Below are positions 3,890-30,712 of a stretch of DNA of 30,713 nucleotides, in pieces. The notes under the pieces are model-generated. The model did no database searches and was not told the DNA's origin. It was given only the letters and a program-made list of their open reading frames with translations. The first letter of the stretch is position 1. The number at the start of each line of letters is the position of its first letter. The stretch covers positions 1-30,713 of the IMG/VR virus record IMGVR_UViG_3300036814_001747; one strand, given 5' to 3'. This DNA is from a virus. Lineage: Duplodnaviria > Caudoviricetes. Position numbers and translations under genes: made by a program.

Positions 3890-4630
3890 CTACAGGTTCC
3901 GTCCTTTTGGTGTATGCCGGATTCGATACACGCCTGGAATGTCAACTGCAACGCTCTTGCCAACCGCTTTGCGATAATGCTGATCGCATCTGCAGGAACG
4001 GAATCCATCTACGTTCTTCTCCAGCGGTTTGGATCTCTCATTCCCTTCGAGGTATCCCTCCTCCCTCGCCAAATTGCCTGACACGATTTGGATTCCTCCA
4101 ATCGCTCGTCCGTAATGTTTTGGCACGAACAGTTTCTCGTCTGCCAAGAACCAATCTTCATGAACTTTTCTCGAGCGTTCGATCAGCCTATCGCCTGCCA
4201 GCTCATCTATGTTCGCACCTACCGTTCGCGGATAGTAGACGCAGCGTCTGTCTAAATCGCATTCTTCGATCGCGACTTCCAGAGACAGATTGTGGAAGAG
4301 ATAATCGCAATCCGTGAACCACACTACATCGGCATCTGTCTGTTTTGCTGCTATGTTTCTACCACAAGCTCTTCGGAACAGATGGGAATGAGGAAGCGGC
4401 AGCAGCACAAGACGGACGCCATTTGTCGTCAGCAGAGGTTCCATTTCCTTCAAGCACTGGACAGTCTTGGGATCATCTTTTGCGTACGCCACTGTGATAG
4501 AAACCCAGCAATCGTTCGTCCGACTGAAGAGTGATGACAACTGGTACCGTAACAGGTAGGCGTAGATATCTGTTTGTCCTGCCCAGCAATGCGTGACAAT
4601 CTCGATGGAATTATTGGCGCTCGTCGTCAC
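3890..4630 (-). CDS. GT-A/GT2-like glycosyltransferase
   Basis: GRNIAAKQTDADVVWFTDCDYLF is a GT2-type RN..A...FxDxD signature. GTG 4630 follows AGGAGG. Confidence 0.8.
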   Translation of the reverse strand: MTTSANNSIEIVTHCWAGQTDIYAYLLRYQLSSLFSRTNDCWVSITVAYAKDDPKTVQCLKEMEPLLTTNGVRLVLLPLPHSHLFRRACGRNIAAKQTDADVVWFTDCDYLFHNLSLEVAIEECDLDRRCVYYPRTVGANIDELAGDRLIERSRKVHEDWFLADEKLFVPKHYGRAIGGIQIVSGNLAREEGYLEGNERSKPLEKNVDGFRSCRCDQHYRKAVGKSVAVDIPGVYRIRHTPKGRNL

Positions 4631-4805
4631 CTGGATTGTCCTCCTCAAGACAGAGTGGTTGGTTCAACGCCCACCTATGACATAGGAAGGCTATCTTTTC
4701 ATTGGAACCTGGAAAGAACTTACACGGACGCGTGACGTCGTAATCTTCAAAGTCTTCAATCGCCCTGTCAATCCCATCCAAACGCTGCTCAAGATTCTTG
4801 CTCAC
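4611..4805 (-). CDS. Small hypothetical protein (PGSxEK..L..R....PL motif)
   Basis: 64-aa ORF filling the gap within the operon. Confidence 0.7.
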   Translation of the reverse strand: MSKNLEQRLDGIDRAIEDFEDYDVTRPCKFFPGSNEKIAFLCHRWALNQPLCLEEDNPGDDERQ

Positions 4806-4807
4806 GC

Positions 4808-5368
4808 CTACCAGTAATCATAGGTGTCGCAAAAGTCCTCTTCTTTACGAGTGACGATTGCACGAAGCTTCTTATCATCTATCTTCGCGACTTCTTTGAA
4901 CCTGTGCCAAGATGTTTGATTGAGAGGGTTCAATCCTTTCAGTATTCCTTCATCCACTTTGAAGCCGAAAGGAGCGAGAAAATCAAACAGACAATGAGGG
5001 AGATCCTCCATACGGAGCACTGAGCCTGCCTTGTAAGTATCGAACATCGTCCCCACAGCACCCTCATCTAATCTACCGACGAACTCGGTAAAAGATTTGG
5101 ACTCGCGAGAGTGCATCTTGAAGACATTGTCAACAGCAGGAACGTCTACGTGTCCTCCACCAAGAGAAAAGTAATATGATTTGAGCCAGGTGTACGGATG
5201 CCGAACCATCGACAATTGTATCTGACTCTCGTATTTTGGCCACGGCTGATGCTTTGCAGACGCACGACCTTCAACAGGCTCGATACCAAGCCTACCGAGT
5301 ACATCGATGGTCCATGTGGTTGCTGTACGAGGTGCTGAGCAGAAGGAAAAACCCTTGTATCTAATCAT
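4808..5368 (-). CDS. PAPS-dependent sulfotransferase family protein
   Basis: 5'-PSB loop APRTATTW and 3'-PB motif VRHPYTWLKSYY. Confidence 0.8.
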   Translation of the reverse strand: MIRYKGFSFCSAPRTATTWTIDVLGRLGIEPVEGRASAKHQPWPKYESQIQLSMVRHPYTWLKSYYFSLGGGHVDVPAVDNVFKMHSRESKSFTEFVGRLDEGAVGTMFDTYKAGSVLRMEDLPHCLFDFLAPFGFKVDEGILKGLNPLNQTSWHRFKEVAKIDDKKLRAIVTRKEEDFCDTYDYW

Positions 5369-5940
5369 TCTTCATCCTTTACGATGTAGCCCCAAAGACG
5401 CTTCCCTGGGGAGATGATTTTGTCTCTCCCAAACTTCTCTTCAACTGCTTTCTGGACACCCTTGTACGTGCCTCCGAAATCGTGACCACAAATAATGCCA
5501 CGTGTCTTCGGAAGCCACGCATCGAGATCCTCTTTGACGGATTGGTATGAGTGGTTCGCATCGATAAAGACAAAATCGTATTCCTTGTCTTTGGATGCTG
5601 CTGCTACCTTGATTGACGGCAGTGTGAAGATGAGGCAGTGATTGGTGATACCCCTACCGATATTTCGATCCCCCACCCGATTGAGATGTTGGATTTTATC
5701 CCAGGCGAGATCTTTGATTTTGTCCCACTCATCTTGCGTGAGCTTGCCTGTTCGTTTGTGCGTTTTGTGATAGGTAGAACCTTCGTCCCATGCCTTCCAC
5801 ATATCAACAAAGTAGAGACGACAATCAACGAACGCCTTAATCAAAGCAACGGATGTCTCAGCTTTGTAGACACCTACCTCTACTCCTGTTTTTGGTTCAC
5901 CAACCGCGTCACGAATCATCCTGATCAATGCCTTTTGCAC
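5365..5940 (-). CDS. Class I SAM-dependent methyltransferase (Methyltransf_24-like)
   Basis: VEVGVYKAETS, YDFVFIDANHSY, IICGHDF. Start GTG 5940 or ATG 5919. Confidence 0.85.
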   Translation of the reverse strand: MQKALIRMIRDAVGEPKTGVEVGVYKAETSVALIKAFVDCRLYFVDMWKAWDEGSTYHKTHKRTGKLTQDEWDKIKDLAWDKIQHLNRVGDRNIGRGITNHCLIFTLPSIKVAAASKDKEYDFVFIDANHSYQSVKEDLDAWLPKTRGIICGHDFGGTYKGVQKAVEEKFGRDKIISPGKRLWGYIVKDEE

Positions 5941-6550
5941 AGCTCGGCTTCCTCTTAATGGCGAATATCTTCCTGAGACATTCATCGGGACCAGTAACAG
6001 ATAGAACAGACTGAACAACAGCCTGCTCTTCAAATAACTCTCGATACTCTTCATCTGTTGCGGCAAAGCAATCTGCGAAATTACCTCGCGTCCCTAGCTT
6101 ATCGTGCCACTCCGTCCACTCAATGTAGAGTGTTCCAGTTGGCTTGAGTGACATCAGCCAAGTTTCAAGAGTATTACGCGGGTCTCGGCTGTGGTCAAAC
6201 GAATTGGTGTAGATAACATCAAAATTATCGTGCCACCCCTTCTGTATCTGATCAAAGTCTTGCAGCAGCACTCTGTCGTCTCGATCAGCCGCCCGTTTGC
6301 AGATCTCTGTTCCAATCCAATCTCCACCAAAAAAGAATTGAAACAGATCCAGTTCTTGTCCTGTTCGTACACCGTGGCAGAGCCCCTGCGTGGGACAGTT
6401 TCCTCTAGGATACCCATAATGCTCAAAACAAGCGGCGACCACTTCATGAATCGCGAAGCACCTCAACTTGACTTTATTCAACTTGCGATTGGTAATTCGA
6501 TCTTGAGCAAGACGATAGGCTTTGTAGCTCTTGAACTCGTGCTGTTTCAT
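5909..6550 (-). CDS. Class I SAM-dependent methyltransferase-like protein
   Basis: LCHGVRTGQE, IGTEI, FDVIYTNSFDH, LKPTGTLYIEW. TAATG overlap with the upstream gene. Confidence 0.75.
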   Translation of the reverse strand: MKQHEFKSYKAYRLAQDRITNRKLNKVKLRCFAIHEVVAACFEHYGYPRGNCPTQGLCHGVRTGQELDLFQFFFGGDWIGTEICKRAADRDDRVLLQDFDQIQKGWHDNFDVIYTNSFDHSRDPRNTLETWLMSLKPTGTLYIEWTEWHDKLGTRGNFADCFAATDEEYRELFEEQAVVQSVLSVTGPDECLRKIFAIKRKPSCAKGIDQDDS

Positions 6551-7197
6551 TAGATCTTTTCTAAGCAATCACAATGACGATGAAACCAAACTTCTTCAAC
6601 CCTGTCTCCGAAGTCTGCTTTGAAATCATCCAAACCAGCTTGGACGTGATCTGCCTTCTCGCGTCGATTACGGACGTCGTCAAACAGCATCCAGCCGCCC
6701 TTCTTCAGCAACGGCAGTGAAAGCATCGCGTCTTTGTAAACAGCGTCCGAGTTATGATCGCCGTCGACTACAACGAGGTCGAATGATTCTTTTGGAAGCA
6801 CCTTCAAAACGTCGGCACTGAAACCTTTGTGGATTGTCACCTTACCTGGAGCAACTGACAAATTGGCACGAGCATTCGCTTCGACCTGATTCATTCTATC
6901 TTTCTTGAGCTTGCGAGTTGGCTCCCAAGGATCGATGGCAACGGCGTGTGACTCGCGATTCTTCAGAATGTTTTGCAAGCACCACACCAGGTCCATACCC
7001 TCAAACACTCCGATCTGAACCATCTTGACGGGATCCATTCCGCCGTATTTCGGAAGCAGGAACGTACTCCACGTCTTCTGATTGCGATAGCGGAACCAAG
7101 ACTTGGTAAACGCCATCTGTTTCTTGCCCTCAATGCCCACGTTTTGCTCGTTGGGCAATTTCTTGAAAGCTTCTTCTTTGCGTGCTGCGAGGTCCAT
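6550..7197 (-). CDS. Class I SAM-dependent methyltransferase (Methyltransf_24-like)
   Basis: QIGVFEG, FDLVVVDGDH, LKKGGWMLFDD. Start ATG 7197 (MDLAARK). Confidence 0.85.
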   Translation of the reverse strand: MDLAARKEEAFKKLPNEQNVGIEGKKQMAFTKSWFRYRNQKTWSTFLLPKYGGMDPVKMVQIGVFEGMDLVWCLQNILKNRESHAVAIDPWEPTRKLKKDRMNQVEANARANLSVAPGKVTIHKGFSADVLKVLPKESFDLVVVDGDHNSDAVYKDAMLSLPLLKKGGWMLFDDVRNRREKADHVQAGLDDFKADFGDRVEEVWFHRHCDCLEKI

Positions 7198-7207
7198 CAA
7201 AAACTCC

Positions 7208-8110
7208 TTACCAAGAACAAGTATCAAAACCAGCTTCCTTTTCGCGACGGCGGAGATGCTTGTTGTTGATTGCATTCCACCATTCGTCGATCTTGCCCAC
7301 TTTGTTCTCTAATGCGAACAAGTAGCGAGGCCACCACAGCTCAAAGCCTAATGGGGATTTGTCTGGACGCAAATTCGAATCACCATGAAAGTGCCATATC
7401 TTCACGTCAGAACGGTTTGTGCTGCGTGGCAAATACTTCGACGACGCATTCCACAGACCTCCAGTAGCAACGCCACAGGCGTCAGTCTCGCGTAGATCGT
7501 GAGCGACTGGGTGGAGGCAGACCTCGTCAGCTATGAAGAGAGTCGTTTTGTGCAAGTCCGTCCAATGGGACCACGCTGCCAACGCTTTGGATTCACCTCT
7601 CACGCCCCAGATCCCTCCGTTAAGAGAGGGGAAGTCGAAATCCGCAATACAATCGATGACCATCTTGCGAGGCATGTGATTGTGTTCCAGCAGTCGTGCG
7701 ACTCGTTTCTGAATCGTTCCCTTCCCTATCGTCCACAGATTGAATTGGGTCGTGATGAACGAGTAATACTCGAGCATCTCAAACAACTCGTCTATCGGCT
7801 TGACAGGAGAGGTATCGGCATCCAGATAGATGAATGACTCTGTTGGTCGTTTGCTGGTAAGCTGCTGCATCATTTTGGTTTTGTCGAGAAACTGAGCATT
7901 CTTACCACGGTACTTTGGCTTCCTCTCGTGGACGGAGATGTCAAGTCGTCTGTCAGTCGCGATTTCATTCACGATGTCCAGAGATTCAGGCCAGGCGTGA
8001 ACCTCGATGTTGCCCTTCCATCCGGCAATAGTACGCAGGTCGAGGATCGAGATCACCAAGTTTGGCAGGTGTGCTCGACCCGATATGAGGTAGACAATTG
8101 TCTTATCCAA
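7208..8110 (-). CDS. GT-A fold glycosyltransferase (GT8-like)
   Basis: FIYLDADT (DxD), LNGGIW, ADE and IWHFHG motifs. Confidence 0.8.
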   Translation of the reverse strand: MDKTIVYLISGRAHLPNLVISILDLRTIAGWKGNIEVHAWPESLDIVNEIATDRRLDISVHERKPKYRGKNAQFLDKTKMMQQLTSKRPTESFIYLDADTSPVKPIDELFEMLEYYSFITTQFNLWTIGKGTIQKRVARLLEHNHMPRKMVIDCIADFDFPSLNGGIWGVRGESKALAAWSHWTDLHKTTLFIADEVCLHPVAHDLRETDACGVATGGLWNASSKYLPRSTNRSDVKIWHFHGDSNLRPDKSPLGFELWWPRYLFALENKVGKIDEWWNAINNKHLRRREKEAGFDTCSW

Positions 8111-8876
8111 TTTGCATCTCTCTTTCTTTGATCTTTTCTTCCATCTGCGAGAGCTTCGAACAGTGTACCCACCCCATGCTCTTCATATTGACACGATGGA
8201 CGAGTTGGTTCGTTCGATTTGCAACGTAGAACATGAATCCATCTTGCGAGGGGACAGGCATACTTCCGTATCCAACTGTCCGCACTGCGAGCTCCTTGCA
8301 GTAACGAGTGAAATCTGTGTTGAAGAAACAGCACCACGAAATGATGCGTGGATGTGATACGCTGCTGCATCCTTTCGATGGATGTAAATTGAGAGGCGGC
8401 GTAGGCCAATAGCCTTGAGACTCAGCCCACTTGTCCAAAATTTCCATCTGGTTGGCAGGTTTTGTGTACCCCCAACGATGGCCAACTATAGCAGGCGTGT
8501 CTCCAAACAGTCTGGTGTCTGGCCAGGTGTGTTTTGACGTGGTGCCTAGTACATCCAAATCTAATTTCAGCCAGTACGGTGCTGTCACGTACTCTGCCGC
8601 AGTGTAAAGGAAGCCAGCCAACATTTTCTGCCGCTGAGCAATGGTCCAGCGAGTTCCGTCCTCAAAATACTTTGCTGTCTTCGGCAAGAAAGGGACGACG
8701 TTGATAGAAGGGAATTCTGCCTTCACGATATCTTCTGTTTCTGGATCATCAACAAACGCCGTAACGTGCTCGCACACATCCGGATGGAACTGCTGCCACG
8801 TAGGCCATGCCAAACGCAAATGAGGGAGATGTGCAGCGTCAACTCCAATAACGGTTTGGTAATCAAGTGACGACAT
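8103..8876 (-). CDS. Putative GT-A fold glycosyltransferase
   Basis: YWLKLDLDV (DxD), QDG and WVHC motifs, inside the glycan cluster. Confidence 0.65.
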   Translation of the reverse strand: MSSLDYQTVIGVDAAHLPHLRLAWPTWQQFHPDVCEHVTAFVDDPETEDIVKAEFPSINVVPFLPKTAKYFEDGTRWTIAQRQKMLAGFLYTAAEYVTAPYWLKLDLDVLGTTSKHTWPDTRLFGDTPAIVGHRWGYTKPANQMEILDKWAESQGYWPTPPLNLHPSKGCSSVSHPRIISWCCFFNTDFTRYCKELAVRTVGYGSMPVPSQDGFMFYVANRTNQLVHRVNMKSMGWVHCSKLSQMEEKIKEREMQIG

Positions 8877-9273
8877 TGAAGCCTTCTTTCTCTATCTGAT
8901 CTAGCACGTCTGCCTTCCCTGTAGTCAAGCGGGTGATTACGGGCATCACTTCGCCGTAGAGTTCGATCACCACAGCATCTTCCACAATTTGCAGTTGGTG
9001 TGGGACCCAGGCAGGGATACGAAAGGAAAACCCTGGAGTCAATATCACACCGTCCGTTCGATGTGGGAAATCGATCAGCAGCTTTACCTCACCACTCACA
9101 ACAATAAAATCATTCCAGGTGTCGTGGAAATGGAGTGAGGTGCAGCACCCTTTGTTCATCAGCTGGTGCGCCTTTCTTTTTTCGTCTGCTCGGAAGTACC
9201 CGCTCGCTGGCACTATCGTTGTCACTTTCCCCCACACCTTGTCTACCCATTGACTCCTCGTACCAGTACTCAT
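8863..9273 (-). CDS. Cupin-domain protein (sugar isomerase-like)
   Basis: KVWG, TSLHFH, FIVVSG and IPAWVPHQL cupin motifs. Confidence 0.8.
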   Translation of the reverse strand: MSTGTRSQWVDKVWGKVTTIVPASGYFRADEKRKAHQLMNKGCCTSLHFHDTWNDFIVVSGEVKLLIDFPHRTDGVILTPGFSFRIPAWVPHQLQIVEDAVVIELYGEVMPVITRLTTGKADVLDQIEKEGFNVVT

Positions 9274-9303
9274 CTTCGTAATCCTCTTCAGTATAAGGAC
9301 GTC

Positions 9304-10125
9304 TCATTTCTCGTACCATCCTTCTAAATCAAACGGCTGCTCAGGAAATCCTTCCAAGCAGTCTGTCAAAGCGTCCTCAAACGGCATGTGAGGAAAGCAG
9401 GATAACGCAGCATCTGGATTGGTGTTGAATACTTTCAGATCTGCTCTCTCGAATACGCCTTCATTTGCCATCTGTCCTAACCAGTTCCCTACGACATTGA
9501 ACTGGTTGTTATTCGTAGTAATAGCTCCTTGATCTCGTTTCTGTGCGAAGGAGTAACCAGAACCTTCTGACATTTTGAAATCAACGCCAATTAGATGAAT
9601 GCGGCGTGCTCCCAGCTCATGTGCAATGCGGAGAGCGAGAAGGAATGTGCAAGCAGTCTTCGGTTGTCCGGTACGCTTGCATCCTGCATTCAAATTTCCC
9701 CAGCTCGCTTGCTTGTCCGTAAAGAACGTATCGTCAGGCTCCAACCAGGTGCGGCGATCTACTGCCCATACGTTTGGACAATGGCAAGCACTGAAACCGG
9801 TCGCTTCAAATTCCTCGCCTACCTTGCGACGTATTCCTCCGCGTCCAACCTTCAACTTTGGGCGAGGGATAAACTTCATCACGTTTGGATCGAGCCAAAT
9901 CCCTGTGTGAAACTTCTTTGGCGGGTCAGCACAGATGAACGCTGATGGACAAAAGCGAGGATGTCCTGCTACGTTGTTGATTGCGAGGCTCCAAACGCCG
10001 CGTTGGTTGAGCTTCTCGAGCTCTAACTCGTTCGCGGACGGGCCTCCACCGATTATGAATACGGCAGGGACGTTACCCAAATGATCGGTAAGCGAAATCA
10101 CTTCGCCCTTGCGAGTAAAGAACAT
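9304..10125 (-). CDS. Maf/DUF115 (MptE-like), CstII-type sialyltransferase-like glycosyltransferase
   Basis: VFIIGGGPSA, AINN, FICAD and ALRIAHELGARRIHLIGVDF motifs. Confidence 0.75.
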   Translation of the reverse strand: MFFTRKGEVISLTDHLGNVPAVFIIGGGPSANELELEKLNQRGVWSLAINNVAGHPRFCPSAFICADPPKKFHTGIWLDPNVMKFIPRPKLKVGRGGIRRKVGEEFEATGFSACHCPNVWAVDRRTWLEPDDTFFTDKQASWGNLNAGCKRTGQPKTACTFLLALRIAHELGARRIHLIGVDFKMSEGSGYSFAQKRDQGAITTNNNQFNVVGNWLGQMANEGVFERADLKVFNTNPDAALSCFPHMPFEDALTDCLEGFPEQPFDLEGWYEK

Positions 10126-18400: not shown

Positions 18401-19090
18401 TTAACTTGTTGATGAGCTAGAGCTGCTACTCGCCGAACTAGAACTTGCACTAGACGAACTCTGACTCGACGAGCTTTCACTTGATGAACTTGAACTAGAG
18501 CTTGATGAGCTGCTGCTGCTTGACGAACTGGATTCGTTGTCGTCGTGTCGCCCAAGTATCAAAATCTGGAAACTTACATCAGCGTCCACTGCTGTGAGTT
18601 TTAAGCGATGCGAGCTTGCGTCAGCAACGTCAAATCCTTCTTCCGCTTTTTGAATCTTGATCAACACTCCGCCCGGATACAAAGCTCCACCATTTGATGT
18701 GGTGTGCGATCCAATTGGAGCCCAGCCTGCTGTTGAATCAGGCTCAATTTCCAGACGACCTGTGAGTCCTGTGTTCAAGTTCTGTATTCCGAAGAATACA
18801 ACTTCTTCAAGAGAGAGGGCTTGCCCAACAATGTCTAAGCCCGCCCCTGCACCGGCATCCAAACCCGCGAAGTCATACAGGTCGATCACGAGAGTACCTG
18901 CGGCAGTGATTGTCGCTTTGTACTCCCATGCCCGGTTTGCTTCGTTGGCACTGACGCCTGACGTCAATGTCGGGTCAAACTGGAATGTCTGTTGCCCGCT
19001 TGCCGTCTTTGTGATCGGTGTGAGCACATTCTGCACAGTAGCGAGAGTTGACACTTTGAGCGAAATGGATTCGAGTGTTCGTACTGTCAT
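18401..19090 (-). CDS. Putative virion beta-rich protein with C-terminal poly-serine tail (38 Ser in last 43 aa)
   Basis: Between tail terminator and tube; tail encoded by mixed TCN/AGY codons. Confidence 0.8.
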   Translation of the reverse strand: MTVRTLESISLKVSTLATVQNVLTPITKTASGQQTFQFDPTLTSGVSANEANRAWEYKATITAAGTLVIDLYDFAGLDAGAGAGLDIVGQALSLEEVVFFGIQNLNTGLTGRLEIEPDSTAGWAPIGSHTTSNGGALYPGGVLIKIQKAEEGFDVADASSHRLKLTAVDADVSFQILILGRHDDNESSSSSSSSSSSSSSSSSSESSSSQSSSSASSSSASSSSSSSTS

Positions 19091-19600: not shown

Positions 19601-20037
19601 AGCTTACGAGTGATCATTCTAACAATATTCGCCCTTTCAGCATTCCAAGTCCGGACAAGAAACGATCTGTCCATCTTCAGCTCTAGTATCACTCCATAGT
19701 CAACAGGCGTACCGACGTATCCTTCTGTCACTCCGCCCTCTGTCTTCACTTCTGCAATGATCGTCTTCAACAGGTTTGTTGTATCAGCACGAGGAAACTC
19801 TCCGGGCAACGAACGTTCAGTCACTCTCGTTATCCCACCTATCACTTCTTTTGTGACGGGCTTGGATATGTTCTTGACCACCTTGTCTCTGAGCCAGTTT
19901 GTCGCGATCGCAACTCTATCAGCCAGTGCCAAGTTCGTGTTCTCGACTACCTTTTGAATGAACCATTCGTCCTTCTGTGACTGAACGTCCTCACGTTTGC
20001 CGCGTCGAGCTTTTGCTGCTTGTACTGCTGCGGACAT
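19597..20037 (-). CDS. HK97 gp10-like neck/tail completion protein
   Basis: SLPGEFPRADTTNL, VGTPVDYGVILE and RSFL motifs. Confidence 0.75.
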   Translation of the reverse strand: MSAAVQAAKARRGKREDVQSQKDEWFIQKVVENTNLALADRVAIATNWLRDKVVKNISKPVTKEVIGGITRVTERSLPGEFPRADTTNLLKTIIAEVKTEGGVTEGYVGTPVDYGVILELKMDRSFLVRTWNAERANIVRMITRKL

Positions 20038-20576
20038 TATCCGCCTTTGTGCTCATAAGACATGAAGTACCCGTTCGCTTTTCCTACTGGCTTCCCTGCC
20101 AATACTTCAGAAGTCCTTCGCACTGGATAGGAGACTTTGAAGGTAAACGAATGACCATCCTCGTGAGTGAAATGAGTCTTTCGCTTGTGATGCGGAGTGT
20201 CGTTCTTAGGATGGTGTTCTTTGAATCCCTGCTTTTTGAGTTTTGATCCAATCACAGACGCTGCTGTCTGTGCCTGCATAATCTTTCGCATGTTCTTCGT
20301 TTTGATTTCCATCAAACCGACAGAAGATTTTCCATGCTTCGAGAATTTCATAGATCCAGGCATAACACCTTTCATATCATCAGCTGATACAGCCTTTGGA
20401 GGTTTCTTACCACCACCTCCTCCACTGCTACTCCCTCCACTACTCCCAGAGGATGGTTTTGCCCCACCCCCTCGAGGACAGGGACCCGGACGTCCACTGC
20501 CCGGTCCTCCGCACTTGGATGCTTCAATTAGAATAGCTGCTATGAGTTTTTCTTCACCTTTGGACACAACAATCAA
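20037..20576 (-). CDS. Basic protein with KCGGPGSGRPGPCP tag (putative internal head protein)
   Basis: Motif shared with 22965..23792; Gly/Ser linker; Lys-rich. Confidence 0.7.
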   Translation of the reverse strand: MIVVSKGEEKLIAAILIEASKCGGPGSGRPGPCPRGGGAKPSSGSSGGSSSGGGGGKKPPKAVSADDMKGVMPGSMKFSKHGKSSVGLMEIKTKNMRKIMQAQTAASVIGSKLKKQGFKEHHPKNDTPHHKRKTHFTHEDGHSFTFKVSYPVRRTSEVLAGKPVGKANGYFMSYEHKGG

Positions 20577-21275: not shown

Positions 21276-22895
21276 TCAGACAAGGGCGTCGGTTGTCCGC
21301 CCAATGACTGCACCACGTTCCATCTGGCCACCGTAGCGGGCCATCGCGACCATCAGCATCTCATTATTTCTAATGAGCGTATCGCCTTCAGTAGAGGTCC
21401 TCATTGTGAGGCCTCGACGTCGGTACATACGATAGCGTGCCATAATCGCGTACATGATTTGGCGGTTGGTCAGAGACTCATTGATTTTGAAGTCTCGTTC
21501 CATCCACGAGTAGCTGTCGTAAGACATACCACCCAGACGACGTGCATCACTAGCACCAACTGGAATAGCACGAGCTCTCATATAGCTCGTTTCTGTTCCA
21601 AGGAACACAGCAGACGATTTCACGTTGCTACGGTGCTCATTTTTCGGCACAGCAAAACGAAGTGATTCGTAATTGCCAAGCGATGTGGTCGAACTGAATG
21701 TGACAGCAGAAGCGCCTGACTTGTTGACAATGCCTTCCGGCTGCGTTGTGCCGTTACCAGCTGCGATCACATCGTCGAGGTCTTCAAGAAGACGTTCGCC
21801 GTACTGAGCGGAGACATGGGAACCAAAATCGATTGGCGTATCGGACAAGAAGTCCAAGCCAATTCGAATAGCACCTTCCCAGCGGAAAATGGTCGTGTCA
21901 AATGCTGACACGTAGGAGGTTGTGGAGAAGAGCGAGATAGCAGAGTCGTCGACTCCACCCCAGCTCGACGTCACAGTACCTGTCGCAACGCCTTCGACCC
22001 GTCGTCCTCGATCAAGTGGCTTGACTTGGACAAGCGGATACAACTCTCCGTGCAGCAGGGGCGTCTGGATGATCTGATCGTCAAAGACAATCGGAGCAGC
22101 TTCCAATCCGCCTGAAGTGGCATCGTCGATCAAAGCCTTTTGCTCTGAAGGATTCAACTTGCGATCCTTGATGTCGGCATAGTCACCGCCATCAGAAGCA
22201 CCGCCCCACTTTTCGTTCTCTAACGCATAGAGAACCAATTCCCTGTCATGCTGAGGGAGCTGTTGAAGAGCAAGTGACTTGGACTTGATGATCTTTGAGT
22301 GACAAAGATACTTCGCCCAAGCACCAGCGACAGCTTTGTCGCGTTCTGACGCATCGTCCATCGGACGACCCGTATCGAAGTCCCGCATTGGCTGACCTGC
22401 CAACGGGTGCTTCTTGCCCCTGTTGTTCTCCATCGGATACTGTGCAGCCGACTTGGTAGTGTCGTAATGCTCAGCAGCCTCTTTGACGCGGACATTGAGG
22501 GCTTTTTCGCCTTCGTCTTCGTCAAAGGAATTGAGATTCTGGAGACCAATCGAAGTCAGCATCTTTTCCATACGAGAAGGAACGTGAACTTCCTTCACTT
22601 CTGGCTCGTCGATGACGACCTTCTTCTCGCCTGCTGGTTCTACAACCTTTGCAGGAGCAGCAGCTTTGGCTGCCGTGTTCGCGTCCAACGAAGTTTTCAA
22701 ACCTGCAATGATTGATTTGAAATCACTTGCAGCTTCGTCTTCTTCATCTACGGACATTGCCTTGAACTCGTCAAGGCTCAGGTCACCGCTTACAATCGCA
22801 GCGGCGGCCGCTGACTTGAACTCATCATCAGATGCGTCTTTCGACACGTCTGAATTTTCAATGAGCCAAGTCTTAATCTTTGCTGTCAGATTCAT
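21276..22895 (-). CDS. Major capsid protein (HK97 fold) with long N-terminal scaffold domain
   Basis: QKALIDDATSGG, LSDTPIDF, GNGTTQPEGI and ARYGG motifs; AAAGGAG RBS. Confidence 0.9.
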   Translation of the reverse strand: MNLTAKIKTWLIENSDVSKDASDDEFKSAAAAAIVSGDLSLDEFKAMSVDEEDEAASDFKSIIAGLKTSLDANTAAKAAAPAKVVEPAGEKKVVIDEPEVKEVHVPSRMEKMLTSIGLQNLNSFDEDEGEKALNVRVKEAAEHYDTTKSAAQYPMENNRGKKHPLAGQPMRDFDTGRPMDDASERDKAVAGAWAKYLCHSKIIKSKSLALQQLPQHDRELVLYALENEKWGGASDGGDYADIKDRKLNPSEQKALIDDATSGGLEAAPIVFDDQIIQTPLLHGELYPLVQVKPLDRGRRVEGVATGTVTSSWGGVDDSAISLFSTTSYVSAFDTTIFRWEGAIRIGLDFLSDTPIDFGSHVSAQYGERLLEDLDDVIAAGNGTTQPEGIVNKSGASAVTFSSTTSLGNYESLRFAVPKNEHRSNVKSSAVFLGTETSYMRARAIPVGASDARRLGGMSYDSYSWMERDFKINESLTNRQIMYAIMARYRMYRRRGLTMRTSTEGDTLIRNNEMLMVAMARYGGQMERGAVIGRTTDALV

Positions 22896-22964: not shown

Positions 22965-23792
22965 TTACAAGTATCGAGACAGGAATGCCTCGGCTGAGTA
23001 GAGCTTGCTTATAATTTTCTTGGAGGAGGATATCAACTTAGATTTCGGAGCTTCTGGGAATTTGGTGGCAGAGAACTTCAACGCCGCTGCTGCGGAGCCT
23101 CTCGCATCTTCCCAAAGAGCTGATATCTTCTCCTTCTTGAGAATGTTCAATGCCTTCCTTCTCACGGCAGGAGGCAATGCCGCTCCTCCAATTTCTAATG
23201 CTCGTGACAACTTGATTTGAACGGATGTCTTCTCTTTACGACTGACCAATCCTTTTTCATACAAGTGATTGATTGTCTCTTGTTGATGGATCCTTTCGTT
23301 TGGAGACTTGGATTTGATCTTCGCCTGCTTGGCTTTGGTTGCGACCCTCTTTGCGAGCTTTGGCTCAAGATGCTCAATCGCCTGCTGCTCGTTTATCCAT
23401 GGATCCTTTGAGGTAGGTTTGAAGCCTTCCTTCTGAGCCTTCTTCAATGCTGCGATTCTACCTTTACTTGACTTGATCTGTTTATCGAATTCAGCGATCT
23501 CAAGATCAAGCTCTGCCTTCCTCTTTTCGAGTTTGGCGAGTTGAGCAAAGGTCTTTGGGGGCTTGATTTTGCCAGCAGGTTTCTTAGGCGGCTTTTTCTT
23601 GGGCGGTTTCTTAACCGGCTTTTCAGCATCACCTGCAGCGGGCTTCTTTGGGGGCTTACGAGGCTTGGCAGGAGGCTTCTTACCTGGTTTGCGTGGCGGC
23701 TTTTTGCCTCCACTACCTGAAGGCTTCCGCGGGCCTGGGCAGGGACCTGGTGTACCACCTGGGCCTCCGCACTTGTCTGCCTCTGTGGACAT
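22965..23792 (-). CDS. Lys/Pro-rich protein with KCGGPGGTPGPCP tag (putative internal head/DNA-binding protein)
   Basis: KKPP repeats and coiled coil; lies between protease and capsid. Confidence 0.75.
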   Translation of the reverse strand: MSTEADKCGGPGGTPGPCPGPRKPSGSGGKKPPRKPGKKPPAKPRKPPKKPAAGDAEKPVKKPPKKKPPKKPAGKIKPPKTFAQLAKLEKRKAELDLEIAEFDKQIKSSKGRIAALKKAQKEGFKPTSKDPWINEQQAIEHLEPKLAKRVATKAKQAKIKSKSPNERIHQQETINHLYEKGLVSRKEKTSVQIKLSRALEIGGAALPPAVRRKALNILKKEKISALWEDARGSAAAALKFSATKFPEAPKSKLISSSKKIISKLYSAEAFLSRYL

Positions 23793-25697: not shown

Positions 25698-26102
25698 TCA
25701 GCTAGTAGAGGATGAAGAGCTGCTCTGTGAGCTGCTGCTGCTTGAGCTCTGACTTGATGAGCTACTGCTAGAACTCGATGAGCTGGAAGATAAGTCTTCC
25801 ATAGAGAGGACACGAAATCCTCCGGGCGTTGCAGCAGGACCAGGAAACTGAAGTTCGCCGGTGTGAAAATTCAACACCTGCGTAGATCCAACTTCTCCGG
25901 AGTCCAATGTGTCGACGAGTGTCGCTTGCCAAATCACGTCGTTGGTAAGATTGACTGTCACTGTCTCGACCGTCGATCCCAACGACTGAGTCGAAAATGC
26001 AGACGGCATCGTATCGTCGCCCGCTTTGGGCATACGAGTGATTGTCAACGCTCTTGACGCAAGGTTGAAAGCGGGTCCAAGATAAAAATCGACGCCACGC
26101 AT
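25698..26102 (-). CDS. Small beta-rich protein with C-terminal poly-serine tail (27 Ser in last 30 aa)
   Basis: GGAG RBS; mixed Ser codons; ends SSSSSSTS like 18401..19090. Confidence 0.8.
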   Translation of the reverse strand: MRGVDFYLGPAFNLASRALTITRMPKAGDDTMPSAFSTQSLGSTVETVTVNLTNDVIWQATLVDTLDSGEVGSTQVLNFHTGELQFPGPAATPGGFRVLSMEDLSSSSSSSSSSSSSQSSSSSSSQSSSSSSTS

Positions 26103-26553: not shown

Positions 26554-26860
26554 ATTCAATCTTCTTAATAGGTGTACCACACAACTTGCAGTTCTCGTCT
26601 ACCGTCCATTGTGCAAGGATGCGAACGTACTTCTTCTCACTCGCCTTGTGTCGGAAGTCTTTCTTGCGATAACGGGCAACGCAAGTCCTCCAAGCGAAGA
26701 TAGCTTGCGTTATCTCCTTTGGGAACTCAATGTCCATTCCCCACTTGCGTTGAAACCTTTCACATACTGTCAAAAACCGCTCCTGAAGAGCAGCAGCAAG
26801 TGACACGTCATCTTGTGTCGAGTTTTCCAAATGGTCGAGTGAGGCGTCAGTTGCTGGCAT
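26543..26860 (-). CDS. Hypothetical protein (CxxC near C-terminus)
   Basis: 105 aa, overlaps its neighbours in operon style. Confidence 0.65.
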   Translation of the reverse strand: MPATDASLDHLENSTQDDVSLAAALQERFLTVCERFQRKWGMDIEFPKEITQAIFAWRTCVARYRKKDFRHKASEKKYVRILAQWTVDENCKLCGTPIKKIEFGD

Positions 26861-27338
26861 TTTCTTTTACCGGTTCATTCGGAGGTACACCCATAAACAG
26901 ATTAGTCCATCTATTGAACAGGGCGTCTAAATCGGGTTTGATGTCTGTCATCACCATTCTGGGCTGACCAGCTCGAACAATAACGTCCATCAGCTCATTG
27001 AAAAAGCTCAACGCCGCGTGCTGTGCAATCAATCTTGGTTTTGTTTCTTTTGACCCGACCCACTTCTTCAGGAACGGTGTGATACCTTTAGGTTCGTTCC
27101 ACTTGCGAACACCTGTGTATCGTCTGTCTCGTCCAAACAGAATCCTCACGAGCTTGTTTGCACAAACCTCAATCACGCGTCCTTTGTCTTCGCCTACTTG
27201 CATCCGCTTGATGAAATCGTCTGCTTCCATCTGCAGCATCATCTTGACAATATCGTCATCACCAAGAGAGTTCCCTTCCGCTTTCAGTTTCATGGACTCA
27301 GCGAATGGATTTTCTTTTGTCTCGTGTACGGAAGGCAT
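26847..27338 (-). CDS. Hypothetical helical protein downstream of the ART effector
   Basis: ATG 27338 (MPSVHETK) lies 4 nt after the effector stop. Confidence 0.7.
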   Translation of the reverse strand: MPSVHETKENPFAESMKLKAEGNSLGDDDIVKMMLQMEADDFIKRMQVGEDKGRVIEVCANKLVRILFGRDRRYTGVRKWNEPKGITPFLKKWVGSKETKPRLIAQHAALSFFNELMDVIVRAGQPRMVMTDIKPDLDALFNRWTNLFMGVPPNEPVKENASN

Positions 27339-27342
27339 AGTA

Positions 27343-30288
27343 TCAATTCGGACAGCATTGGTTATCGAGAGTAGGCAGCATGATGGCATCTACGTAATGC
27401 TTCGCCCCTACCCTTTGGACTGACTTTACCATGATGCGTTGGTTAGGAGGAAACAAGATTTCTTTCTCACTACTGTGGCTCGATACGTTTGAAACTGCAA
27501 GCCCCTTCACATCGGGGCCTATTGTGATATTCCATTTGACGTTGTTGGCGGTGAACACTCCTTCTGGTTTGGTGGACGTACTGAGCACACCTTTGTCAGA
27601 TACGATCTTACCAGGAGTTAGAGATTGGATCGCGAGCGGCGCTAGACTATGAAACCGAGTTACCTTTTTCCCTTCTGGAAGTTTTCTAGCAGCAGTCATC
27701 ACTCCGTTCGCGACATTTTTGGCACGAGCTGCTGCCTTATCCCAACCGCCTCTCAATTGGGGATTGGTGATGCGATATCCGCCACCGGTATAGGATCTGA
27801 TTGCATTCTGCTTCGTCTGCGGAAGTTTATTGAACTCAGCTTCCCCTTTAGCGTGAGTGGCGTTTTCAGAAGCACCAAAAGAAAATCCTTGAGGAATCCC
27901 TTCGGGTATGCCGCCCATATCGGCTAGTACATCCCAATAACCGATCTTCTCGAGTCCTGCCTTACCAGCTGCTGATTCTACCTTTGCAGAGATCTCATGG
28001 AAAGCTCCACTGAGAGGCGTAGGAGCAGGTGGCGGATTCTGTTGCTGCATCACATTGCTGATGACCTCCTCGGCAAAGTTCTTCACTTTTGGAGACTTGT
28101 AGAAACCGTTGTCTACACGCCATTGCAGTGTCGCAATATCTCCAGCCGCTCCGTCTGATATGATAGATTTGACATCATTTTTATTCGCCGCGATGTGTGT
28201 TTCGTTTGTAGATAGAAGAGTAGGCGGTGGTGGGAATTGATCGGTGTCGATAGTGATCTTCTTTTTCACAGCAGCAACCTTCTGAACTGCTGCTACCTTC
28301 TTCCCATCATGTTTATCTGCTATCTTCTCTTGCATAAACAACCCCTTCTCTTCGAGATCGTCTTTACGGGCAATCAGTTTCTTTACCATATCTTGTTTCG
28401 CAGCAGCATTACCTGGATGGTACTTATTGACAATGTCTTTGACAGTTTGCTCTGTTATATTCGTCACCTTTTCGGCAGACTCCATCAGCTGCTCATCCGT
28501 CATTTTGCCAAACACCTTGTGCATCGACGGATTTTGCTTCGCGTCTCGCATGGAACTGAACTCATTTGCGAATTCTCCCATCGGTTTCTTACCACCACCT
28601 CCCATGCCCTTGTAATCAAGTCCACCGCCCACATCGATCGCAACGAGCTCTCCGTTTGGCAACTGCTTGATGTTATCCATCGGATTTTCGCTGCCAGCTC
28701 CAACCGCATCTCTATTATTGAGCCACGCATGAACACCGAAATCATCTGCAGCTTTGTCCTTGACTGATTGCATGTCCCATTTTGGTTTAGTCGACCCCTC
28801 TAACCACTCAGTCGCAACTCCGACCTTCCCATCTATCTCAACTAGGTGGTGATCGGCAATGCCTGCTCCAGCAGCTTTGTAGAGCTTGGACGTCAGAACT
28901 TCGTTGTGAGCTCTGTTTGGATCGTCTGGAATCTTGACATAATACTTCTTCCCTCCCATTTCATACGTACCGCCAATCTCAGTACCAAGAGATGGGCCTA
29001 TCTTCTTCCAGTTCTTACCATCAGCCACCGCCGGATTGTTGTCCGTTGCACTCGCACCGGGTGCCAGTTTCTGTAGCTTCTTTCCTTTCTGAGCCAACAG
29101 ATTTTCTTGTGCTTGGAGCTGTGCCTTAAGTTTCGCAGATGAAGCTGTCGCCGGGTTTGCTTTGGACATCTTCTTCTGGAACTGTCCCCATTTTCCTTCG
29201 GATGCGAGTTTTTCAAGGGTCGCTATCTTTTTGAGGTGAACTTGGGCGGACGCTTGGCTTATCTTCCAACTGCCTGTGCTTATTCCGGCGAACTTACCTA
29301 CCGTACCAGGTACCAGCTGTCCTGCTTCGTTTGTCGTAGGCGGTACGTAGGCGCCTTTTGCGCCTGCTTTACAGGTAGCATCGACTCCACCACCAGCACC
29401 TGTTGGACAAAAGACTTTTGTTTGCAGTGAAGCAGCTTTCTTCTTATCTGAAACGAGCCTCTGCATAGGGAGTAATCCCCCTACCATCTGGAATTCAAAC
29501 TTGTATCCCTTCTTAGGAACCACTTCAACAACACCTACCTTCTTCAAAGTCTCGCGTTTGATCTTCCCTTCTTTGAATAGCTCCCCTATCGCTTTCTGAT
29601 AATGATTTCCATCTTGTAGATGGTACTTCCCATTTTCCATCTTTGACACAACGAATGGACGCGTGAGTCCATTCTTCTCAATCGCCTTCTTGTGTTTCTT
29701 GACTGTTCGCTTGTTGATGGAAACGGCAGCGTCACTCTTGATGTCTGCAATATCAAGTTCGTGGTATTTGGTAGTGACCTTTCCTTTCCAATCCTTTTGG
29801 TCTCCTACCCAACCTCTCGCCTTCTTAATTTCTGCCGCACTCGCAACACCACCTCCACCGGGCTTACAACTCGAATCGACTCCGCCTCCTGAACCAGTTG
29901 GGCAGAAGACTTTTGTTTGCAGTGAAGCAGCTTTCACCTTCTCATTAGTCGCGACATTCAAAACTGCCTCAGAATAGTCTCGCATGCCAGGAGAAACACC
30001 AAGCAGTAGATCGTGAGCTCTATCTACAACAGCAGATATCTCCAGCTTGTCGTTCGCTTCCATGACGTCCAAGAACACATCAAGGAAAAAATGATAGAGA
30101 ACAGCATCTGGCAGAGTGGACTTCGATCCGGAGTGCAACGCTATCAAATCGATATCAGCACCACGATTGAACACCCGAACGAGTTGCTTCGCTTGCTGCT
30201 TCATTCCCCGTTCGCCTCCTCTTAAACCAAGAGCTAGGCGGTTTTTAAGAACGGCGGCTGTTTTGTCTTGATCGAAGAGTGATATCAT
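27343..30288 (-). CDS. Multi-domain effector: ParB/Srx-like + PI3K/HipA-like kinase + VIP2-type (R-S-E) ADP-ribosyltransferase
   Basis: PFVVSK..YHLQDGNH; YYVK..NEVL..WLNNRD..AIDVGG; YTGGGY..N..LR, VTR, LSTS, EKEILFP. Confidence 0.85.
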   Translation of the reverse strand: MISLFDQDKTAAVLKNRLALGLRGGERGMKQQAKQLVRVFNRGADIDLIALHSGSKSTLPDAVLYHFFLDVFLDVMEANDKLEISAVVDRAHDLLLGVSPGMRDYSEAVLNVATNEKVKAASLQTKVFCPTGSGGGVDSSCKPGGGGVASAAEIKKARGWVGDQKDWKGKVTTKYHELDIADIKSDAAVSINKRTVKKHKKAIEKNGLTRPFVVSKMENGKYHLQDGNHYQKAIGELFKEGKIKRETLKKVGVVEVVPKKGYKFEFQMVGGLLPMQRLVSDKKKAASLQTKVFCPTGAGGGVDATCKAGAKGAYVPPTTNEAGQLVPGTVGKFAGISTGSWKISQASAQVHLKKIATLEKLASEGKWGQFQKKMSKANPATASSAKLKAQLQAQENLLAQKGKKLQKLAPGASATDNNPAVADGKNWKKIGPSLGTEIGGTYEMGGKKYYVKIPDDPNRAHNEVLTSKLYKAAGAGIADHHLVEIDGKVGVATEWLEGSTKPKWDMQSVKDKAADDFGVHAWLNNRDAVGAGSENPMDNIKQLPNGELVAIDVGGGLDYKGMGGGGKKPMGEFANEFSSMRDAKQNPSMHKVFGKMTDEQLMESAEKVTNITEQTVKDIVNKYHPGNAAAKQDMVKKLIARKDDLEEKGLFMQEKIADKHDGKKVAAVQKVAAVKKKITIDTDQFPPPPTLLSTNETHIAANKNDVKSIISDGAAGDIATLQWRVDNGFYKSPKVKNFAEEVISNVMQQQNPPPAPTPLSGAFHEISAKVESAAGKAGLEKIGYWDVLADMGGIPEGIPQGFSFGASENATHAKGEAEFNKLPQTKQNAIRSYTGGGYRITNPQLRGGWDKAAARAKNVANGVMTAARKLPEGKKVTRFHSLAPLAIQSLTPGKIVSDKGVLSTSTKPEGVFTANNVKWNITIGPDVKGLAVSNVSSHSSEKEILFPPNQRIMVKSVQRVGAKHYVDAIMLPTLDNQCCPN
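29411..29935. repeat. Perfect 30-bp direct repeat (29411-29440, 29906-29935) flanking the ParB-like module
   Basis: AAGACTTTTGTTTGCAGTGAAGCAGCTTTC occurs twice, 495 bp (165 codons) apart. Confidence 0.9.
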
Positions 30289-30521
30289 GATTTTGGCCCG
30301 TACTCTCTACGGTAGGGTTCTACCTCTTTATCGAATCGAGAGAGCTCATCATCTGTAAAAATCCCATCACCCCCTTCATCAAAATCAGCATATCGCAAAC
30401 GTGTTATCCGGACAGGGCGAGCCCCTCGACAAGAAACCACAGCTTCGTCTTTTACTCGATCGTATCCCACCAAACGGCACTCTTTGATTTCTAGATCAGA
30501 TTCGAAAAACCCAATATCCAT
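30285..30521 (-). CDS. Small acidic hypothetical protein
   Basis: ATG 30521 (MDIGFFES) lies 2 nt after the upstream stop; ATGA overlap with the effector gene. Confidence 0.65.
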   Translation of the reverse strand: MDIGFFESDLEIKECRLVGYDRVKDEAVVSCRGARPVRITRLRYADFDEGGDGIFTDDELSRFDKEVEPYRREYGPKS

Positions 30522-30523
30522 TA

Positions 30524-30712
30524 TCAACCTTTCTCGTCTAACGATTGATCCCATTTACTGTACGATCGAGAACCGAGACCTAGCCGAGGAGGAACATGCC
30601 GCACAGCAACCCCCGCATCGGAAAAATTCTTCAACGCCTTCTCGCTCAAAGGTGTCCCTGGAACTATTCTGACCTCTTTAATAGAAGACAACGTCACGGG
30701 ACCGTGTATTTG
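30524..30712 (-). CDS. C-terminal fragment of a gene running off the window (QIHGPVTLSSIKEV...DEKG*)
   Basis: Open frame from the window edge to TGA 30526-30524. Confidence 0.55.
   Translation of the reverse strand, partial: QIHGPVTLSSIKEVRIVPGTPLSEKALKNFSDAGVAVRHVPPRLGLGSRSYSKWDQSLDEKG

Follow-up and report, generated by a model that had tools for sequence, protein, structure and literature searches.

The locus considered here is the cargo gene P0001, carried on the minus strand of the window, by which is meant the whole 30,713-nucleotide stretch of viral DNA analysed (IMG/VR record IMGVR_UViG_3300036814_001747, positions 1 to 30,713), a head-tail region of a tailed phage. An earlier reading made from the letters alone, hereafter the sequence-only reading, had taken its product for a triple-enzyme effector combining a ParB/Srx-like domain, a PI3K/HipA-like kinase and an arginine ADP-ribosyltransferase (ART), packaged in the head, processed by a protease and injected into the host. 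Re-mapping of the domains showed the open reading frame (ORF) and the three domains to be real, with coordinates right to within about 70 nt, and also brought out what that reading had missed, namely two repeats that each encode a short tag, two small helical domains, the variability of the ParB-like cassette and a downstream partner ORF. The features of P0001 and of this partner are the following.

27343..30288, minus strand: cargo gene P0001 (ORF call), 981 aa, or 953 aa if the start is M29
29932..30204, minus strand: N-terminal segment (residues 29-119), which a cut at the first tag is predicted to take off
29864..29943, minus strand: repeat copy 1 (80 nt) with tag 1, K126 then VFCPTGSGGGVDSSC; predicted cut after K126
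29443..29841, minus strand: ParB/Srx-like cassette, with DGNHY at residues 226-230 (29599-29613); variable among phage variants
29369..29448, minus strand: repeat copy 2 with tag 2, K291 then VFCPTGAGGGVDATC; predicted cut after K291
29059..29301, minus strand: small helical domain A, residues 330-410, kept across the subfamily
28324..29031, minus strand: kinase domain, CtkA/HipA/PI3K-like, with K452, E463, N525-R-D527, N539 and D552-V-G-G
28009..28239, minus strand: small helical domain B, residues 684-760
27364..27891, minus strand: ART of the R-S-E class, Alt/VIP2 type, with R878, S903-T-S905 and E941-K-E943
26847..27389, minus strand: dedicated partner ORF of 180 aa (163 aa if read from M18), a candidate for an immunity or chaperone role

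The kinase was modelled with AlphaFold over residues 317-663 from a 25-row alignment, with a predicted local distance difference test score (pLDDT) of 87.6, and the best Foldseek match of this model in the PDB is CtkA (E 1.3e-5; template-modelling (TM) score 0.43 by query and 0.52 by target), the next distinct protein being actin-fragmin kinase and other protein, lipid and sugar kinases coming further down. None of the Pfam kinase families, HipA_C and PI3_PI4_kinase included, matched the query by sequence, and the only HipA match, below the cut-off, was found in P0043. Across 88 distinct kinase domains, E463, N525, D527, N539, G554 and G555 are present in all 88, D552 in 87 and K452 in 86, and confident helices following D552 in the model indicate that the kinase keeps a helical C-lobe; the PI3K/HipA-like kinase with Lys, Glu and N-x-D elements that had been proposed is thereby borne out. 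The C-terminal ART, for which R, STS and ExE elements had been put forward, was likewise recovered by PF03496 at residues 821-961 (E 2.6e-10; 40.4 bits for a cut-off of 23.4), it also matches solved R-S-E ARTs, and R878, S903, E941 and E943 are invariant in 42 of the 42 aligned rows having a residue in the column. ARTs of the ExE type modify arginine, and some ART folds are NADases. Both the kinase fold and the R-S-ExE ART are intact. Domain B weakly resembles domain A (hhalign probability 46% over 24 columns), and the linker joining the kinase to domain B (window 28240-28310, minus strand) contains K-V-A-A twice, a pair that could, from its sequence, provide extra Lys cut sites parting the kinase from the ART.

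The ParB/Srx-like domain is real as a fold: ESM Atlas models gave TM scores of 0.56-0.65, three of the four rows being named ParB_N. Its sequence matches are weak (PHROG 4715 at E 6e-4; PF02195 at E 0.057, below the cut-off), its best PDB match, SbnI, is non-significant (E 0.15), and a single-sequence AlphaFold model of residues 29-291 (pLDDT 34.9) was not used. Searched against longer proteins, the ParB region found its own cluster only; against 50% representatives it found five proteins, one of them the window's own cluster. Active sites of the ParB/Srx type are described with a conserved Arg (PMC5512222), and the usual active-site Arg is here Tyr or Gln (DGNH[Y/Q]) in all four close members, that of the window included. 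A sequencing error was rejected as the source of DGNHY, which is identical in all five cassette-bearing cluster members and in a further locus (L082); since three close relatives also read DGNH[Y/Q], the loss of the Arg is a family trait, and a fourth, distant match keeps GGERR. At the same time, DGNH, RPFVVS and W-x-G are invariant in the four members, and three of these four are free-standing genes that bear a tag-like leader. The designation of P0001 as a triple enzyme was therefore overstated, because the ParB-like part is without the usual Arg in 4/4 close members; this part is moreover absent from the 45 outside homologues introduced below and missing or replaced in phage variants. It is probably an optional passenger rather than a normal ParB enzyme, and P0001 is better seen as a cargo of two enzymes, to which the ParB-like cassette is an optional addition, within a tag system.

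From its sequence, P0001 may start at M29 (30204), with AGAGGAGG lying 10 nt upstream, and M29 is the start in six of the eight cluster members reaching the N-terminus. Among the fetched loci and proteins, the N-terminal segment has no homologue beyond the same phage; an assignment of the N-terminal 90 residues as a MuF N-terminal domain was rejected, the matches being confined to the same phage.

The kinase-ART unit, its partner and its surroundings

Used as a query, the kinase region found 46 proteins, 45 of them outside the window's own 90% cluster and one belonging to it; of these 45, 41 also carry an ART (PF03496), 11 are fused to MuF and four to a portal, and the ParB core (residues 209-270) aligned in none. 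Similarly, among 34 viral kinase proteins drawn from 80 loci, the partner domains are ART (21), Nudix (17), portal (9), topoisomerase IB (3), MuF (2) and DUF2213 (2). From these homologue architectures and from the gene context, the stable unit is the kinase-ART head-module cargo, lying here in a gene without MuF. The same kinase occurs within viral proteins of 3,100-5,900 residues (L047, L060, L063, L064, L067). Outside viruses, Rhodobacter-type genomes (L250:5413-8360; L244, L245, L253-L255, L257) carry the kinase fused to DSP-PTPase, the L250 gene standing tail-to-tail with draG and draT, and further cellular genes combine kinase and ART (L239, L240, L243, L249, L246); those of Massilia, Collimonas and a Burkholderiaceae bin have low-complexity N-termini, and that of a Mycobacteriaceae bin has a WXG100 domain. 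Judged by sequence, these cellular kinase-ART genes look like secreted effectors.

The downstream ORF follows one architecture closely. Among non-duplicate ORFs flanked by 600 nt or more, it stands directly behind 16 of 16 genes having kinase, domain B and ART, as compared with 2/16 other kinase-ART genes, 0/22 kinase-only genes and 0/13 ART-only genes, and all 28 partner matches sit directly behind a kinase/ART-type gene. It spans K- and E-type head modules (defined below), while the two ORFs after it are tied to the K-type module alone. Pfam, PHROG and PADLOC gave no match for the partner, and no Atlas match exceeded a TM score of 0.43. The module of kinase, ART and partner was also found by tblastn in 20 records of cultured phages, which label it only as ART or hypothetical; the partner was confirmed in both of the two inspected, fHe-Yen8-01 and the Pseudomonas putida phage Dolphis (gp117/gp118). 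The fHe-Yen8-01 annotation marks both gp129, with its kinase, domain B and ART, and the partner gp130 as particle-associated. From its sequence context, the partner would probably hold the ART in check, or act as its chaperone, in the producing cell.

The head-module neighbours of P0001 on which the following sections draw are listed here.

30285..30554, minus strand: 89-aa ORF between the MuF gene (outside the window) and P0001, overlapping the first ATG of P0001
23792..25423, minus strand: prohead protease (S78), the predicted cutter (PF04586, E 8e-5; PHROG 80, E 6e-13)
21276..22895, minus strand: major capsid protein of the HK97 type; its predicted maturation site holds the invariant K253 (22137-22139)

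Genes outside the window were read from two further assemblies of the same phage, which carry the portal, a MuF protein of 1,242 aa, the 89-aa ORF and P0001. The gene order is thus portal (PF04860, E 2e-24), MuF (PF04233, E 8.5e-9), 89-aa ORF and P0001, followed by protease and capsid; no PF04233 match was found by Pfam inside P0001 itself, MuF being two genes upstream. The MuF protein (L081:780-4631, minus strand) contains two tagged cargos, the first of which (about residues 115-370 from Met) has no Pfam match and, by eye, R...S-V-T...E-x-E-like residues, being perhaps a second ART on the strength of these residues, and the last of which gives a weak DUF3626 match. Elsewhere in the window, the minus-strand region 3890-10125, after the tail genes, holds glycosyltransferase-like, methyltransferase (Methyltransf_24 twice), cupin and MptE-like genes, possibly for virion or surface glycan modification, and the ORFs 18401-19090 and 25698-26102 (minus strand) end in long poly-serine C-terminal tails. 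Finally, nine seawater or marine metagenomes from nine studies, one of them perhaps the source, each contain at least half of the words of the searched stretch; no RNA dataset is listed among the runs with such words.

Tag repeats and the predicted cut site

The two repeats of P0001 are direct, 83% identical over 80 nt and 495 nt apart; they encode K-VFCPTGxGGGVDxxC and flank the ParB-like cassette of 165 aa. Two further copies of the tag are found in the MuF gene, each ahead of a cargo domain and one of them 92% identical over 49 nt, and the tag stands ahead of cargo domains in many phages. Its occurrence was assessed in a scan of viral contigs, which yielded 160 of an estimated 190 stretches, 80 of them with their full flanks, and which was pooled with further fetched loci; once loci with the same 25-residue context had been merged, the pool comprised 208 distinct contexts, falling into 95 groups. 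The residue preceding the tag is R in 102 of them, N in 61, K in 23, E in 8, L in 6, Y in 5 and F in 3. This pre-tag residue does not vary within 31 of the 34 multi-copy groups, the exceptions being K/R, F/Y and F/Y, as compared with 3, 9 and 3 of the 34 for the next three upstream positions and 16 for the first tag residue; shuffling gave a mean of 5.7 and a maximum of 13 in 10,000. Other domains in tag-bearing proteins (L120, L132, L140, L104, L156) include 2H/Acb1-like phosphoesterase, zeta-toxin kinase, topoisomerase IB, C39 peptidase and ART-PolyVal.

Besides, the pre-tag residue follows the type of head. K and R go with an HK97-type portal, S78 and PF05065, N with portal_3, weak DUF2213 and DUF6260, E with a lambda-type portal and PF25209, and L and F/Y with a Mu-type portal, as assigned from 95 of 214 candidate ORFs scanned, a scan in which no protease family was identified for the E, L and F/Y classes. 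In the capsids, for which the cut sites were chosen by position and by eye, the matching residue is invariant where the capsid domain begins (K 9/9, R 6/6, N 5/5, E 2/2), K and R standing at the same register, 10 residues before position 1 of Pfam PF05065. The tag residue equals the capsid residue in 18 of the 18 loci having both a leader and a capsid, of which 17 bear the FCPTG tag and one, an E locus, an HPR-type leader; in one K locus among them, a single R stands beside four K tags. The R class shows E-x-R at the tag in 84 of 102 contexts and D/E-S-R in its capsids. HK97 cleavage occurs after Lys. Since the pre-tag residue is uniform, lineage-specific and identical to that of the predicted capsid maturation site, the tag likely marks a cut site of the head protease. 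Prohead proteases remove the capsid propeptide and can also cut internal cargo such as Alt (PMC7411985).

Other leaders were observed as well. In portal_3/DUF2213 phages (L023-L079), an aromatic-x4-HPR...G-x-F leader precedes Nudix, kinase, topoisomerase IB and ART cargos; an Asp lies within four residues before the aromatic in 41 of 49 contexts of these D-class (HPR-type) leaders, and they were left out of the counts because its position is not fixed. In the window, two Lys/Pro-rich head-neck ORFs (22965-23792 and 20037-20576, minus strand), with no homologue beyond the same phage among the fetched loci, begin with a second type of tag, K-CGG(P)G...GPCP, which also forms the leader of P0055, a stand-alone relative of the ParB-like domain. 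In the cultured phages, an L/I-x-K-A motif was noticed by eye near the N-terminus and in the capsid and protease.

The repeats are also the places at which phage variants diverge. Among eight cluster members covering the region, five have the cassette and three are without exactly its 165 residues, and in one of the five the first tag region is replaced by that of the second. In eight runs, foreign sequence is joined right after tag 1 in four and another foreign join occurs right before a tag copy in three, while contigs skip 495 nt in two; the loose end seen in three runs may belong to the tag copy of the MuF gene instead of the P0001 slot. Two viral-contig scans recovered no copy of the alternative cassette, which is known from 30-letter ends only. 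Contig depth over the cassette falls below that of the flanks in four runs, an observation of little weight that fits a mixed population and does not give copy numbers.

Weighing of the explanations

Taken together, the folds, catalytic residues, gene context, tag statistics, partner co-occurrence and divergence at the repeats make it fairly probable that P0001 encodes a modular head-cargo polyprotein that is cut, packed and injected, modifies host proteins and is restrained by its partner; cutting, packaging, injection, substrates and partner binding are what we infer from these observations. More precisely, P0001 synthesised late would be recruited to the prohead and packed, and the S78 protease would cut after K126 and K291, releasing a ParB-like piece of 165 residues and a kinase-ART piece of 690 residues, each starting with VFCPTGxGGGVDxxC. 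Both pieces would then be injected with the DNA into a new host, where the ART would ADP-ribosylate arginines of host proteins and the kinase would phosphorylate host targets, the cell being redirected or disarmed early; in the producer, the downstream ORF would restrain or chaperone the ART. The DNA repeats that encode the tag would act as joints for the gain, loss or exchange of cargo cassettes. The part of the sequence-only reading that saw a head-packaged and protease-processed effector is thus strengthened by the gene context, the MuF and portal fusions, the match of tag and capsid residues and the particle-annotated homologue, its triple-enzyme part excepted. A wider proposal, slightly less likely than not, is that many uncultured tailed phages have a universal tag, xFCPTGxGGGVDxxC, preceded by a protease site that varies with the lineage (K, R, N, E, L, F/Y) and equals that of the capsid, that any domain so tagged is released in the head with a common N-terminus directing retention or ejection, that the tag DNA is a joint for cargo swaps inside a living population, and that one common cargo is a new CtkA-like kinase coupled to an arginine ART having its own inhibitor.

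Several points weigh against this interpretation. The residue classes are whole lineages, so that the 18 matches amount to about four independent cases, at sites picked by position or by eye, and recombination or conversion among tag copies could make the pre-tag residue uniform. The cassette-less forms could be assembly artefacts, because the 30 letters at the skip joints (two runs) fit both sides; repeat collapse does not account for the foreign joins. Little weight attaches to the particle-associated flag, which is set on 10 of 21 features there, terminase and DNA methyltransferase included, and the cultured homologues do not bear the FCPTG tag. P0001 has no MuF or portal domain of its own that could take it into the head. 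Finally, the kinase substrate is ambiguous, since Foldseek also lists sugar and lipid kinases.

Other explanations account for parts of the same data. That all three domains are active, the ParB-like one as a nuclease, NTPase or kinase with a rebuilt active site, is unlikely but deserves attention, given the motifs that stay invariant in its four members, three of them stand-alone genes with tag-like leaders, and the resemblance, albeit non-significant, to SbnI; the replacement of the Arg by Tyr or Gln in all four and the apparent dispensability of the cassette speak against it. Somewhat less likely is that the kinase is not a host-takeover protein kinase but works together with the ART in ADP-ribose chemistry, phosphorylating ADP-ribose, an ADP-ribosylated protein or a nucleotide signal so as to lock the modification or blunt NAD-based defence. 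The kinase does travel with ADP-ribose enzymes, namely ART (41/45 and 21/34) and Nudix (17/34), the latter mostly directly upstream of the kinase, the Rhodobacter gene in L250 is a DSP-PTPase fusion next to draG-draT, and the kinase-ART pair persists in cellular genes, one of them with a WXG100 domain. Nevertheless, the top structural matches, CtkA and actin-fragmin kinase, are protein kinases, 22 kinase ORFs have no ART, and co-fusion may merely reflect shared cargo slots.

As for the fate of the protein, it is improbable that the cargo is packaged and injected uncut, or cut elsewhere, with the tag as a binding or recombination motif and the residue match as a by-product of lineage and gene conversion. 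The repeats are indeed conserved as DNA (83% over 80 nt; 92% over 49 nt with the MuF copy), variants diverge there, and the N4 virion RNA polymerase is packaged unprocessed (Iyer 2017, PMC5512222); such a scheme sits poorly with a pre-tag residue whose uniformity (31/34) exceeds that of the first tag residue (16/34) and which switches from K to R at the register of the capsid site. A non-virion pair of ART and partner, working in toxin-antitoxin or superinfection exclusion and merely located in the head region, is very improbable: it would agree with the strict partner linkage, and phage ART toxin-antitoxin pairs are described (PMC9503650), but it leaves aside the frequent fusion to portal, MuF and protease, the protease-matched tags and the particle annotation of a homologue.

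Returning to the cut and injected polyprotein, the tag system is a more general finding than P0001 itself. The way in which effectors of the MuF and portal types leave the head and are delivered is a standing question; the accounts consulted predict packaging, and no processing signal was met in them. As the pre-tag residue switches with the capsid cut site, processing is directly testable and offers a handle for mining injected anti-host proteins: if the wider proposal is true, the tag predicts protease specificity from sequence and lists injected effectors genome-wide. In addition, the kinase-ART-partner module is widespread and present in cultured phages, which would make a hidden family of phage kinases assayable now.

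Comparison with known systems

Head-packaged ARTs and fusions to MuF or portal have already been described (PMC9503650, PMC5576092, PMC3482391). For the kinase-ART-partner module or the tag, no report was found in a mostly open-access literature, and the online architecture files of Iyer 2017 may list such proteins; the protein goes unmentioned in the Mecenats66 paper, neither kinase nor ParB occurs as a word in the main text of Jamet 2017 (PMC5576092), and one supplement file of PMC9503650 gave no match for kinase, HipA, PI3 or ParB. A functional precedent is provided by the phage kinases T7K and JSS1_004, which disarm host defence by phosphorylation (PMC13645617, PMC12345140). The kinase of P0001 shares with the group of CtkA, HipA and actin-fragmin kinase its fold (Foldseek E 1.3e-5) and the residues K, E, N-x-D, N and D-x-G-G, while differing by an identity of about 12%, no Pfam HipA match, an insert between the catalytic Asp and Asn, and the head context. 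T7K and JSS1_004 are presumably not CtkA-like, and we take them to be expressed after entry rather than packaged.

Among packaged effectors, T4 Alt is carried in the head, cut by the prohead protease gp21 and injected (PMC7411985; PMC5512222). Like P0001 it has an R-S-ExE ART, but it is a stand-alone ART whose N-terminal targeting sequence is removed, whereas the ART of P0001 is fused to a kinase and its tag, placed after the predicted cut, would be kept; P0001 also differs by an S78-type protease and a dedicated partner gene. The T4 targeting sequence is N-terminal (PMC9958956), unlike the P0001 tag, which is internal, repeated and located after the predicted cut. MuF polymorphic toxins, of which 14% have ART as cargo (Jamet 2017, PMC5576092), resemble P0001 in their head-module site by the portal and their ART cargo (PMC5576092; Zhang 2012, PMC3482391). 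In P0001 the portal is three genes upstream (locus L081), and where these toxins have a small downstream immunity ORF of less than 150 aa, P0001 is followed by a dedicated ORF of 163-180 aa, a candidate immunity protein. The toxins belong to temperate phages, and the window is a partial contig of 30.7 kb. P0001 differs by the lack of a MuF domain and by several cargos in series, each tagged. Finally, the polyvalent proteins (Iyer 2017, PMC5512222; Iyer 2022, PMC9503650) come close in being multi-effector, predicted to be delivered by the virion and provided with ART, kinase and ParB-type domains, recombining cassettes having also been proposed for them (PMC5512222; PMC9503650), and P0001 indeed joins several conflict domains in one phage polypeptide. 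As described there, their ART is H-Y-D, their kinase is without the whole C-terminal subdomain and their DdrB-like ParB keeps the Arg, whereas in P0001 the ART is R-S-E, the modelled kinase keeps its helical C-lobe and the ParB-like Arg is lost.

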